From contig OZ024741.1 in NCBI GenBank assembly GCA_964016885.1, forward strand, positions 394,940,001 to 395,004,000: a DNA stretch of 64,000 nt. Direction: 5' to 3'. How positions within the stretch are numbered: position 1 is the first letter of the stretch; the number at the start of each line of letters is the position of its first letter. The stretch is from Eledone cirrhosa (Eukaryota). This document shows positions 39,100 to 63,379 of the stretch, one piece after another. Position numbers and translations under genes: made by a program. The notes under the pieces were generated by a model. It saw only the letters and a program-made list of their open reading frames with translations, searched no databases and was not told the DNA's origin.

Positions 39100-39198
39100 A
39101 TGACCTATTCAGGACGAGAACTGTTTCATTCATGTGAAATCATCAGAAATGTTATGATGATGTCATATGAATGAAACAGTTCTAGTTCTGTAGGTCAT
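39100..39198. repeat. Short degenerate palindrome with a divergent HHR pair
   Basis: Arms atgacct..gaactgtttcattca..aatcatcag and tgatga..gaatGAAAcagttctag..GTAggtcat; same family as 61230-61366. Confidence 0.75.
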
Positions 39199-41058
39199 GA
39201 GAAGTACCTAGCTAAAAGTAAACTCCTCTATTTGATATTTGTTGACCTAGAGAAAGCTTTTGACAGAGCCCCTCTGCATGGTCCATTAGGAAACAAGGAG
39301 TAGATGAGTGGCTTGTGAAGGCAGTATAAGCTATGTATAGAGGAGTGGTCAGCAAGGCTACTATAGTGAAGAATTTAGCATGCAGGTAGGAGTCCATCAG
39401 GGCTCTGTTCTTAGCCCTCTCCTGTTTATTATCGTCCAGCAGGCTATAACAGAAGAGTTTAAAACTGGGTGCTCATGGGAACTTCTGTATGCAGATGATC
39501 TATCTCTCATAGCTGAATCTATAGCAGGATTGCTGAAGAAATTCAAAACCTGGAAGCATAGCCTAGAATCAAAAAGTCTTAAAGTCAATTTGACAAAGAC
39601 TAAAATCCTAGTATGTAAAAAGGAAATCAGGGCCCATATTCCCTCAGGGAAATAGCCTTGCTCGGTGTGCAGAAAAGGAGTAGGTAGACATTCCATTCTA
39701 TGTCCCAAATGCAAACTATGGGTACGCAAGAGATGTAGTGGTATCTCAGGCAGGCTAGCAAAGAATATAGGTTTTGTATGTGGTCAATGCACTGGATCAG
39801 TAAATAGCAAGAGCTCATAGGATACTAATTCCTTTAAATGCCCATAGGGCTCTGTAGAGGTAGTTGATAGTTTCTGTTACCTAAGTTACTAAATTAGCAG
39901 TGGAAGTGGGTCTTCTGCAAGTATAGTTTCCAAAGTGAGAATAGTATGGAAGAAGTTCAGAGAGCTACTACTGCTGCTAGCTACAAAAGGTTTTTCCTTC
40001 AAAATGTAAAACAGACTGTATGAGGTTTGTGTATGTAATGCTGCATAGAAGTGAGACCTGGGCAATATGTGCAGAGGATCTACGAAGGATCGGAAAGAAA
40101 TGAAGCTTGCATGCTTCAATGGATGTAAATGAACACCAAAGCATCAATGAACTGAGAGAGAAACTAGGTATAAGAGGGGGTTAGATGTAGTGTACAGGAG
40201 AGGAGATGGCAGTGGTTTGGACATGTGATGAATATGGAGGATGGTAGTAGTATAAAAGGGGTGCAGGGCACTCAAAGTCGACAAAAACTATGGAAGAGGA
40301 AGACTTAGGAAAGCTTGGGATGAAGTGATAAAAGCTGATCTTGACAATTAAAACTCACAAAGGGTATGACATAGGATTGAGATATTTGGCATTATACTGT
40401 ACTGCAGAAAACCCACCTTTCCATGTGCTCAAAATGAAATGAAACAAACGTAGAGGACACAGTAGTCTGCACCAATCTTCTCTTCACCCCTCCCCATTCA
40501 CTCTCCCTAATCTTAATACCCGACCCTCACCAACTAAATATCCCACGCGCCACATTGATGTAAAACTTGCTTACTTCCCCTCTCCAAAATCTCACGCCTG
40601 ATACACCTTATTTGCCCATCCCATGCATACAAGCATGAAAGCTGGACACACTCTAAATCTGGTCTTCCACAATGCCATTACCACAACAAAAGCGCTAAGT
40701 CTACCCTGTATGCTGATCCAGTGTCACAACAACAAAAGCACCCAGTCCATCGTGAAAGGTGATCATGATTGTGACATGACAAAAAGGTGGTCGTAAGTAC
40801 CCAGTCCACCCTCTAATGTGGTCATGATTGTGACATGACAAAAAGTACCTAGTCCACCTTGTTAAGTGGTCATTTCGGTGCCACAATAAAAAGCACTCTG
40901 TCCACATTATGTGGTAGGTGTTAGGAAGGGCATCCAGCTAGAGAACCCAAGTCAAAATATAGATTTGTATGAGTATGATGTCGTCTCCAGATATGGCTTG
41001 TCTCATAATGTGGCAACCCATCTAACCCATGCAAGCATGTTAAATGATAGTGATAATG
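39196..41058 (+). mobile_element. Old degenerate RTE LINE 3' half
   Basis: [10 protein letters not shown] and YADD motifs with many stops; UTR repeats and tail. Confidence 0.85.
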
Positions 41059-41074
41059 TTATATACATATATAT

Positions 41075-44000
41075 ATCATCATCACCGTTTTATGTCCGTT
41101 CTTCCACGCTAGCATAGGTTAGATGGGTTGTCCTGTTGTGGGCAGTGTCTGGTCGGCTGACCTTGTCTTGCTCATACAGGAACTGATTCTGGCTTGATTT
41201 CTACAGCTGGATGCCCTTCCTAACACCAACCTCATTTACAGTGAGTGGGGGGGTGCTTTTTTTTCCGTGGCGCCTACACGTCCACTTTACAGTGTGGGCT
41301 GGGTGCTTTTTTTCCGTGGCACCTCCACGACCACCTTGCAGTGGGGGGTGTGGGGGCATATTGTCTATATGCTTCAGCTTGTACCCATGGGAGGTCGGCT
41401 ACTCTGTATTACTGCGTGACGCCAGAGGTCACGGTCGTGTGTCATCGCCTTTGAGAGGTGTAACTGGGTAAGGTCGGCTTTTATCACCTCATCCCAGGTC
41501 ATCTTTGGTCTCCCCACTCCGCGGTTTCCATCGACTTCTAGTGCTCTGCATCTTTTTATGCAGTTGTCATCCTTCTTACGCATCACATGTCCATACCAAC
41601 GCAACCACCTCTCCTGCATACAGCATTTGATTCCTCTTATGCTCAGTCTCTCTCTCAATTCATTTATGCTTTGTCGGTCACGTATATTACTATTACACAT
41701 CCATCGGAGCATGCAGGCTTCGTTTCTCTCTAATCTACGTAAGTCTTCCACCTTCAGCGCCCAGGTCTCACTACCATGCAACATCGCTGTTCGGATACAC
41801 GTATCATACAGTCTGCCTTTCATTTTGAGGGAGAAGCCTTTTGCAGCTAGCAGTGGTAGTAGTTCCCTAAACTTCTTCCATCCCGTTCTTACCCTAGTTA
41901 TTGTACTTTCTGAACACCCACCTCCGCTGCTAATTCGGTCACCTAGGTAGCAGAAGCTGTCTACTGTTTCTACAGAGCCCTCCCAGAGATTGGTGGTACT
42001 TGTTTCCTGTGGCTGTTTGCTGCTTGCTGTCCCAGCACAGCTGCTGCATGTGAAGCCTACATTCTTAATTAAGCTTCCTGAGATCCCGCTACATCTCTTG
42101 TGTACACATTGTTTGCATTTGGGGCAGAGAATGGAGTTCCTACCTACATCTTTCCTACATACTGAGCAAGGCCATTTCCCTGAGGGGATCTGGGTTCTGT
42201 CTTCTCGTCTACTTACAAGGACCTTAGTCTTTGTCATGTTGACTTTGAGACCCTTTCTTTCTAGTCCCTGCTTCCAAGTTTGGAATTTCTTCTCTAGTTC
42301 TACCATAGATTCAGCTATAAGTGCGAGGTCATAAGCATACAGGAGTTCCTATGGGCATCCGGTCTTAAACTCCTCCGTTATTGTCTGCAGGACTATGATG
42401 AACAGGAGGGGGCTAAGAACAGAGCTCTGGTGGACCCCAACCTGTACGCTAAATTCCTCGCTATACTCATTGCTAATCCTAACTTTGCTGACTGCTCCCC
42501 TATACATGGCTTGTACAGCTTTCACAAGCCATTCATCTACTCCTAGTTTTCTAAGAGCCCACCAGATTACATCACGTGGAACTCTGTCAAAGGTTTTCTC
42601 AAGATCGACAAATGCCAGGTAGAGGGGCTTACTTTTAGCTAGGTACTTTTCCTGTAACTGCCTCACAAGGAAGAGGGCATCAGCGGTGCCTCTTCCTGGT
42701 ACAAACCCAAATTGCATCTCATCTAGTTTCACCCGGTCCCTAATCAACTGTGCTATAACTCTTTCTGTTACTTTCATGACCTGGTCCATCAGCTTATACC
42801 TCTATAGTTTCCTCTATCGAGTGCATCACCTTTACCTTTGTAGCAGTTGACAATGATGCTACTGCACCAATCTTTTGGTATGACACCTTCTAGTATTACC
42901 TGGTTAACAATACGTGTGGTTATAGTGTGACCTACAGACCCAGATGCCTTCAGCATCTCGCCAGCTATACCCGAATGACCGGTTGCCTTCCCCATCTTCA
43001 TATCTTTGATTGCCTTACTTACTACGCTGCTGCTGACTTGTACTGCTGGCCCCTCTATAGGGTCTACTTGGGGTAGGGTCTCTTCTTCCCATGCATTCTC
43101 CTCATTTAGTAATCTATCATAATGACTCTTCCATGCATCTTTCTTCTCAGCACTTGTGAGGGCAAGCCCACCTTTATCATTCCGGATACACTTCTCTCCA
43201 ATGACATCACAATTCTCTCTGACACACTGCCTCGCAATCTTGAACACCTCCTGTTTCTGGTCCTCACATTGCAAAACATGCTTGAATTTTCTATCCTCTG
43301 CTTCCCTCCTAGCTAAGTATACTTGTTGCCTAGCTTCCCTCTTGGTCTCTATGTAATGTACCCTGCTCCCCCCCATTCTTCCATTCTTTCCATGCCTGTC
43401 TCTTGACCTTAACTGCCTCATCTACCTTATTATTCCACCACCAAGTCACTCTCCTCCTGCTTGTGGTCTTACTCCAGCCACAGACCTCATCCGTCGCCTC
43501 TAGTAAGTTATTTATTAGGAACTCCCAGTGCTCTTCTACATTGAATGTCTCTATCTGTTCTTCTTTACTGTCGTAGGCGTTGGGTAAAATATCTCTAAAT
43601 CTGTTACTGGTTGAGGGGTCTTTCAGCTTCCAGATCTTTCTTCTCCAGGTTGGCCTCTGTTTCTAGGTTCGTCTAGTTCTGACTGTGAGGTCGCTGACAA
43701 CTAAGCTATGTTGGGATGTACATTCCTCACTAGGGAAGGCTTTTGTGTTTACGACCGTCCATCTGTCACGTCCTCTGATGAGGATAAAATCTATCTGACT
43801 AGAATGCTCCCCTGATCTATAGGTGATCAGGTGGTTGTCGGGTTTTTTGAAGTTTGTGTTACATATCGACATGTCATTGGTGTCGCCGAATTCTAGAAGT
43901 CTGAATCCTTCTTCATTTCTTGTGCCAACCCATGGCCTCCATGGACTCTATTGAAGCCGTCACAGTGTTTACCTACGTGTCCGTTAAAATCTCCTGCGAT

Positions 44001-62074: not shown

Positions 62075-62919
62075 TATATATATATGTATATATATATATA
62101 TGTATATATATATATATATGTATATATATATATATGTATATATATATATATGTATATATATATATATGTATATATATATGTATATATATATATATATATA
62201 TATGTATATATATATATATATGTATATATATATATATATGTATATATATATATATGTATATATATATATATGTATATATATATATATATATATGTATATA
62301 TATATATATGTATATATATATATATGTATATATATATATATGTATATATATATATATGTATATGTATATATATATGTATATATATATATGTATATATATA
62401 TATATATGTATATATATATGTATATATATATATGTATATATATATATATATGTATATATATATATGTATATATATATATATGTATATATATATGTATATA
62501 TATATATATATGTATATATATATATATGTATATATATATGTATATATATATATATATGTATATGTATATATATATATATATGTATATGTATATGTATATA
62601 TATGTATATATGTATATATATGTATATATGTATATATATATATATGTATATGTATATATATATATATGTATATGTAAATATATGTATATGTATATATATA
62701 TATATATGTATATGTAAATATATGTATATATATATATATATGTATATATATGTATATGTATATATATGTATATGTATATATATATATATATATGTATATA
62801 TATGTATATGTATATATATGTATATATATGTATATGTATATATATATATATATATATGTATATATGTATATGTATGTATATATATGTATATGTATATATA
62901 TATATATGTATATATATGT
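62075..62919. repeat. (TA)n(TG) microsatellite
   Basis: Directly visible. Similar tracts lie at 60845-61161, 61367-61533 and 63380-64000. Confidence 0.97.
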
Positions 62920-63004
62920 AAAGTTATATTTAAAATTGTTGGGTTACAACTAGTAAATATTTATAACTGATATAAAAGCACTCGACAAATACTTGGAGTA
63001 TATT

Positions 63005-63379
63005 TACAATATTAAATAAATGGAAAACTATATTTATAAAACCATATTTATTTCATTATATATATTTCGGGGATATCATATTAACAATATGCTATGCCTT
63101 CATCAGACAAAATACAATATAAACAGTTTTATAGATAAATATATTCGACATACCGTAATAAACATGAACTTCATTTGAAGAGGTTCACTCTAGCAGTGAA
63201 CCTCTTCAAATGAAGTTGATGTTTATTACGGTATGTCGAATATATTTATCTATAAAACTGTTTATATTGTATTTTGTCTGATGAAGGCATAGCATATTGT
63301 TAATATGATATCCCCGAAATATATATAATGAAATAAATATGGTTTTATAAATATAGTTTTCCATTTATTTAATATTGTA
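63005..63379. repeat. 375-bp palindrome (5-nt spacer) with a divergent HHR pair
   Basis: Spacer ctagc at 63190-63194; HHR at 63049-63104 (-) and 63280-63335 (+). Confidence 0.94.
63280..63335 (+). ncRNA. Type I hammerhead ribozyme motif
   Basis: tattttgt-CTGATGA-[imperfect hairpin aggcatagcatatt..aatatgatatcccc]-GAAA-tatata-TA-atgaaata; stem I includes G-U pairs. Confidence 0.8.

Follow-up and report, generated by a model that had tools for sequence, protein, structure and literature searches.

How do six palindromes, built around hammerhead ribozyme motifs that point away from each other, come to lie within one stretch of DNA, and how is the mirror arm of such a palindrome made? The stretch in question is a 64,000-nt window of the Eledone cirrhosa genome (contig OZ024741.1, positions 394,940,001 to 395,004,000), the whole of which was analysed and in whose numbering window positions are given. 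The palindromes, denoted P1–P6 in window order, are almost certainly insertions of the hammerhead-bearing end (pseudo-long terminal repeat, pLTR, plus tail) of five protein-coding families of Penelope-like elements (PLEs). The five families are further members of known PLE clades, and the palindrome layout has already been published; what is new here is a clustering of the turning points of the arms where the RNA of the element probably starts, a hint as to how mirror copies form. Papers cited by PMC number or DOI are drawn on in part.

The six palindromes had been placed between 39100 and 63379 in an initial annotation of the window. With TA-type repeats masked, self-BLAST for inverted repeats and self-alignment recovered all of them, with arm identities of 86/99 (P1), 330/341 (P2), 388/464 (P3), 144/150 (P4), 446/446 (P5) and 380/387 (P6). 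The hammerheads have the orientation described there, on the + strand in the right arm and on the − strand in the left, with their 5′ ends towards the centre; TA tracts lie beside five of the six palindromes (the exception is P1), and one arm is the longer in P2–P6. The count of five distinct families is also borne out, P1 and P4 belonging to a single family (80% over 92 nt). That none of the palindromes has coding sequence is true of the six but not of a P3-family sibling at 33007-33926, absent from the initial annotation, which includes a GIY-YIG C-terminus. End positions within an arm are counted from the first hammerhead core base, whose window position is given as "core" in the following description.

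39100-39198, no strand: P1, a decayed head-to-head stump related to the P4 family; no intact hammerhead in either arm, no TA flank; adjoins a fragment of a long interspersed nuclear element (LINE).
47191-47363, − strand: P2 left arm, short 3′ end; core 47293; extends to the family 5′ edge (-69).
47370-47608, + strand: P2 right arm, long 3′ end; core 47425; tail ~47526-47608; Hydra-type family by motifs, with an 821-aa frame in copy L171.
50544-50806, − strand: P3 left arm, short 3′ end; core 50734; extends ~70 nt upstream of the core.
50807-51049, + strand: P3 right arm, long 3′ end; core 50814; tail ~51006-51049; Neptune-like family, with a 995-aa frame in copy L061.
61163-61296, − strand: P4 left arm, long 3′ end; tail 61163-61229; core 61290; stops at the family 5′ edge (-6).
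61300-61366, + strand: P4 right arm, short 3′ end; starts at the putative +1 (61300); core 61306; Hydra-type family, with a 758-aa frame in copy L164.
61534-61756, − strand: P5 left arm, short 3′ end; core 61636.
61755-62074, + strand: P5 right arm, long 3′ end; putative +1 at 61755, within a self-complementary hexamer at the centre; core 61877; tail 61980-62074; Hydra-type family.
62918-63199, − strand: P6 left arm, long 3′ end; tail ~62918-63004; core 63106; extends to the putative +1 at 63197.
63195-63379, + strand: P6 right arm, short 3′ end; core 63278; Hydra-type family, with a 738-aa frame in copy L170.
33007-33926, + strand: P3-family sibling; inverted long-end arm without ribozyme 33007-33201; GIY-YIG C-terminus 33202-33522; then 3′ untranslated region; core 33727; short 3′ end at 33926.

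The origin of the palindromes becomes apparent when each pLTR family is followed to fuller copies, since all five reach reverse transcriptase (RT) and GIY-YIG sequence elsewhere in the genome. The earlier suggestion of short PLE insertions with an inverted pLTR and a TA preference is thus supported, every family being tied to a PLE open reading frame (ORF). The sibling provides 94 amino acids of the GIY-YIG domain, and a genome search with it yielded 25,899 candidates, of which 150 matches were scored, with frames of up to 995 aa; this longest frame, in L061 of the P3 family, combines RT and GIY-YIG with a CX4CxxC linker (CIDKKCITC). The P5 arm has 455 candidate places in the genome, the longer copies running upstream into RT and GIY-YIG, which in this family were seen only as two-frame copies (L065, L069). 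Exact matches number 4072 for 40 nt of P4 and 3041 for 32 nt of P6, with none for either reversed control. Frames follow directly after the hammerhead in P2 (821 aa, L171), P4 (758 aa, L164) and P6 (738 aa, L170). For these three families hammerhead–ORF–hammerhead units, that is partial tandems with pLTRs, are present (L171, L170, L164, L173, L174, L175); none came up for P3 or P5 in the sequence retrieved. From hammerhead to hammerhead the units measure 3660 bp (P2) and 4119 bp (P6), above the length of <3 kb that is typical, if not strict, for the Hydra clade.

The frames of 738-995 aa contain the RT motifs DI.xY and YRDD/YVDD together with GIY-YIG motifs, and the Atlas neighbours of the proteins carry GIY-YIG/RVT_1. 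Four families, P2, P4/P1, P5 and P6, are 37-52% identical in protein sequence and have RWRA/RWTA/RWKA, SDKT/ADKT, a CxCX5C linker, and CxxC plus CxH near the C-terminus, with no CX2-5CxxC in any of the four. On these motifs, which include all those that PMC8557442 lists for the clade, they are probably Hydra-clade PLEs, while P3 appears Neptune-like, with Nematis also possible.

The arms were compared with a type I hammerhead descriptor that tolerates an extra base after A9; a strict version without that base gave only 4 matches. The descriptor matched 11 times in the window, in both arms of P2–P6 and once at 33727, against a mean of 0.02 and a maximum of 1 in 50 shuffles. A hammerhead in every arm, as first described, is therefore found in part: the type I core (CUGAnGA, GAAA and NUH with stems I–III) is complete in 10 of the 12 arms, those of P2–P6, and absent from P1, where the first core base of the right arm is changed, the left arm has no NUH, and the 5′ strand of stem I is absent. 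RNA folding recovered stems I and II for P2, P3, P4 and P5 and did not give the intended fold for P6 or P1; compensatory stem changes occur in single related copies of P4 and P5. The Rfam hammerhead search returned no match for P5, P2 or P6 at E≤10, and a whole-window Rfam run had no hammerhead among the matches listed (150 of 372). The transcript of each strand would hold one sense hammerhead only, paired over its full length with the opposite arm, which makes action as a dimer unlikely. We infer that the opposite-strand hammerheads are passengers and not a cis-acting dimer. Minimal PLE hammerheads have been described as having low activity even when dimeric (PMC4209133), and insertion in vitro did not require ribozyme cleavage (PMC11167929).

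Further hammerheads were seen in passing. A single hammerhead-like motif of another family was recognised by eye at 49855-49912, and near-identical motifs pass the descriptor at other loci. The fetched loci (L001-L315) contain 121 distinct descriptor matches, many of them outside the five studied families, pointing to a large PLE diversity in the genome. In L172 and L242 (G000:C1:83679000-83698899) P4-family hammerhead units are repeated head to tail every ~1.07 kb, nine of them in L172; the array is either retrozyme-like or a local tandem expansion. At L164:7215-7290 reads and contigs contain a joint that steps back ~76 nt, from the short 3′ end to just upstream of the hammerhead, and forms very short head-to-tail P4-family units.

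The ends of the arms were then read from genomic copies. For P4 and P6 the samples comprise nearly all of the first 100 matches in genome order, for P3 the first 30 of 187, and for P2 and P5 the top 30 loci by score, out of 41 and 47 matches. Without duplicates, the ~1.07-kb tandem array and contexts of <300 nt, 24 (P2), 30 (P3), 88 (P4), 35 (P5) and 99 (P6) arms were kept. The P2 anchor misses arms that carry an indel, and a P5 sample starting at the window's own centre was left out of the end statistics. Each Hydra-type family has two fixed 3′ ends: ~+96-104 and +184 in P2, +54-61 and +130 in P4, +101 and ~+198 in P5 (the long end read from printed flanks), and +102-108 and +187-195 in P6. 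The P3 3′ ends are unreliable. In tandem copies the stretch between the two ends is the leader ahead of the ORF. Among the 86 head-to-head pairs, 82 combine a long with a short 3′ end, three are short with short and one is long with long. This arrangement matches what is described in PMC11167929, where an RT start site lies at either end of the tail. The proposed TA preference is confirmed: a TA/RY tract begins at the 3′ end in 82/85 (P4), 87/96 (P6) and 17/23 (P2) arms, compared with 894 of 20,000 random positions (4.5%). In P5 a TA tract lies at the 3′ end of 18/35 arms, and most of the misses have TA or TC tracts a few bases on.

It is at the 5′ side that the palindromes turn. A single 9-nt window per family, picked after viewing the data, contains the 5′ ends of 9/24 (P2), 42/88 (P4), 15/35 (P5) and 36/99 (P6) arms; the next 9 nt upstream contain 0, 1, 0 and 2, respectively, and the per-base stop rate at the edge is 33-148x that of the 198 nt upstream. 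Both arms end at or inside the family edge in 57/86 pairs. Three reduced-representation read runs and two contig sets, compared with the P6 and P4 ends and with the P6 edge masked as repeat, gave a few opposite-strand joints, none of them at the modal edge. The initial annotation had considered extreme 5′ truncation; the arms are indeed short and 5′-truncated, but random fall-off is improbable given that each family has a single edge at which the ends cluster. This edge coincides with the A of a YCA (pyrimidine-C-A) motif, at -69 in P2, -122 in P5, -91 in P6 and -6 in P4, where it is also the first base of stem I. The YCA motifs are initiator-like, and a TATA box lies 30 nt upstream of the P4 edge. 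In D. (Drosophila) virilis, Penelope has its promoter and start site within the pLTR (PMC2377424), and a TATA box and an initiator-like motif are described from the pLTR of a rotifer PLE (PMC3846280), which makes a start site at the edges plausible. The edge is likely to be the transcription start of the element within its pLTR. In a literature search no paper was found on arm ends clustering at a PLE start site; older D. virilis Penelope papers could hold one.

Comparison of the two arms indicates when the palindrome arises. Arms differ less within than between insertions, by 2.2 vs 3.8 per 155 nt in P6 (35 pairs) and by 0.27 vs 0.65 per 52 nt in P4 (28 pairs), and none of 10,000 permutations reached this similarity in either family; the two arms therefore appear to come from one RNA template, or else one was copied from the other. 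The spacing between the arms is continuous, from 4 bp to 8.7 kb, and the centre sequence varies between copies. The centres are heterogeneous: in some the arms overlap by 0-9 nt (at most 17), in others anything from a few to tens of additional bases lie between them. Because spacing is continuous, centres vary and arms are closest within an insertion, the palindrome appears to be built at each insertion. The short-end arm reaches >10 nt further 5′ than the long-end arm in 11 of the 82 long-and-short pairs, the reverse being seen in 13, and in the P3-family sibling it likewise extends further 5′ than the inverted arm. In 11 of the 17 edge arms classed as "other", the inverted arm is tail-only or tail plus ≤12 nt, and the short-end arm reaches the edge. 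Neither arm contains the other in those cases, which excludes copying from arm to arm.

We consider it fairly probable that the mirror arm is made during each insertion, by twin priming from two cut target strands with run-off at the RNA 5′ end. Twin priming is known from L1. In a PLE, the GIY-YIG nuclease would cut both strands of a (TA)n target, and both 3′-OH ends would prime RT on a single RNA, each at one of two internal initiation sites. If initiation takes place within the 5′ leader of the transcript, RT would continue until its template ends, at the transcription start predicted in the pLTR, as in a strong-stop product. The two cDNA 3′ ends would anneal by 0-9 nt of microhomology or through a few added bases and then be filled in. 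Priming in the leader would give a short palindrome of near-fixed size, whereas initiation in the 3′ pLTR would yield arms that are longer, contain ORF sequence and are truncated at random points. An Anolis PLE has been observed in vitro to use two internal RT start sites, both target strands being cut and extended (PMC11167929). Our tentative formulation, for which the odds fall somewhat short of even, is PLE twin priming with strong-stop-like products, in which joining may be aided by a self-complementary motif selected at the transcript start. If this formulation is true, the inverted pLTR and the one-sided tail would have a common explanation, and the short palindromes, which number in the tens of thousands in this genome, would show directly in the DNA where PLE transcription and RT begin.

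By a different route from the same PLE origin, a single cDNA (or an antisense template) would snap back at short native palindromes and prime its own extension; the tail would then be left by nuclease resolution and the edges would be fold-back sites, not RNA starts. Such self-priming has been proposed for rotifer PLEs (PMC3846280), and the self-complementary motifs at the P2 and P5 edges, the 6-12 nt overlap of several centres and the variants common to both arms of an insertion are in its favour; yet other perfect hexamer palindromes within 300 nt upstream draw few ends, the end distribution has a cliff on its upstream side only, 11 single edge arms pass straight into TA without a partner, and neither the tail-only inverted arms nor the longer short-end arms can derive from a single cDNA. 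We regard snap-back as rather unlikely. With two-arm priming retained, the edge could instead be an RNA processing site (a splice acceptor, another ribozyme, a nuclease) or an RT pause, as the pyrimidine-rich stretch and YAG adjoining the P4 and P6 edges might suggest, and as might the D. virilis Penelope intron that ends at hammerhead helix I (PMC4209133). P6 arms regularly continue past the AG, however, a common upstream exon sequence before the edge arms was looked for and not found, and the descriptor catalogue, which covers the hammerhead class, has no second hammerhead at matching copy number; this version is improbable. There is very little room for the other class that had been envisaged for these palindromes, a non-autonomous ribozyme element in its own right, palindromic and copied whole. 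Short palindromes of modal length are common, and 20 of the 75 first-listed P4 matches occur in pairs <100 nt apart, but the arms are near-identical to the ends of coding elements, centres vary, spacing reaches 8.7 kb and arms match best within an insertion. With families that code and no common centre or length, such a class is without support and largely refuted. Fold-back chimeras from sequencing or assembly, to which the 100% identity of the P5 arms might point, are scarcely credible: flanks are not mirrored, each of the two arms stops at a fixed site of its own, the arms of older copies (P1, P3) have diverged and the layout recurs in 86 sampled pairs.

Several observations weigh against twin priming with run-off at a transcription start, and one against the PLE assignment. 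The identification of the edge as a transcription start derives from DNA motifs and insertion ends. Perfect self-complementary hexamers lie at or beside the P2 and P5 edges, and a self-complementary tetramer or hexamer is similarly placed in P6 and an imperfect pentamer in P4, so that start site and fold-back site are confounded. P3 has no sharp edge, with 18 of 30 ends between -4 and -75 and a spread that reaches further; these ends lie near motifs of the ETS, NRF1 and YY1 type. One full-length P4 copy starts 3-6 nt upstream of the proposed +1. Variants found in one arm only are about as frequent as those in both (22 vs 23 in P6, 9 vs 7 in P4). Pfam gave a sub-threshold RT match for P3 and none for the Hydra-type proteins.

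The density of these palindromes had been called striking. Compared with a background of 40 stretches of 10 kb, taken at even intervals from the five largest contigs (400 kb in all), which holds 39 hammerhead matches and 6 close head-to-head pairs, the window with its 11 matches and 5 pairs has ~1.8x the matches and ~5x the pairs; it is enriched, but modestly, TA-type repeat being 2.5x as well. The locus is otherwise ordinary, with ~15 head-to-head pairs per Mb and ~45,000 genome-wide if that rate holds, and in the fetched loci unrelated PLE ends are often side by side in the same tracts. How PLEs come by their tandem and inverted arrangements is a question that PMC8557442 describes as open, and the end statistics provide a sharp and cheap test of one PLE insertion model. 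If the palindromes are intronic, long perfect hairpins could serve as double-stranded RNA substrates.

Self-BLAST also returned inverted structures at 33053-33926, 29750-30716 and 47670-48764. The last has 432-nt arms (97.7%) around a 237-nt spacer and adjoins the P2 tail and TA tract; its arms have no hammerhead core and no ORF, the same end follows the P6 tail in locus L138, and it is possibly another TA-targeting element. Nested inverted and direct repeats occupy 29690-30720, with four first-half hammerhead cores lacking a matching second half and no ORF. Elsewhere in the window, 28948-29026 is a 79-nt plausible + strand exon with an open frame, the only such exon found. Broken frames at 8376-12720 resemble a Helitron Rep/helicase, another RT frame lies at 2004-3530, and many RTE-like LINE fragments with a Cys-rich insert and (CAT)n ends are spread over 14450-55540 in both orientations.

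Among known systems, P2, P4, P5 and P6 come close to the Hydra clade of PMC8557442, whose supplement includes a family from Octopus bimaculoides (Hydra-1_Obim) with a (TA)n preference. They are alike in RW(K/R/T)A, DKT, the CxCX5C linker, CxxC plus CxH around E/N without CCHH, a canonical pLTR hammerhead and insertion into (TA)n. They differ in unit length, 3.7 kb (P2) and 4.1 kb (P6) against a typical <3 kb, and in tails of 65-95 nt against 30-40, and the Hydra-1_Obim hammerhead as listed differs from those here. The same source describes a Hydra copy, Penelope-13_HM, with an inverted 5′-truncated copy and hammerheads on both strands. P3 is similar to its Neptune-type PLEs, which likewise have a C-terminal GIY-YIG, a CX2-5CxxC linker and CCHH; the Neptune-like features of P3 include two core Cys and two His, a DKS motif, a minimal hammerhead and TA flanks.

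The divergent layout is that of the dual minimal hammerheads, one on each strand with 100-700 bp between them, reported from PLE-rich genomes and attributed to truncated PLEs (PMC4209133). Those hammerheads also have an extra nucleotide after A9 and a palindromic helix III; in contrast to the present work, the parts of that paper drawn on contain no junction or arm-end analysis. The inverted 5′ copy and optional tail seen here are known from PLE insertions whose pLTR is inverted and whose tail lies on one side (PMC3846280, PMC2377424), and the families also appear to share the initiator-like motif and promoter in the pLTR (PMC3846280, PMC2377424) and the two fixed 3′ ends (PMC11167929). In the parts of these three papers drawn on, the inverted junction is not linked to the transcript 5′ end, and PMC3846280 favours self-priming. 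The non-LTR retrozymes, as partly described in bioRxiv 10.64898/2026.07.22.740005, are similar in being non-coding, in having a type I hammerhead and in deriving from PLE pLTRs; they consist of head-to-tail tandem units, whereas the six palindromes are head-to-head, appear to be made at each insertion and come from coding families.

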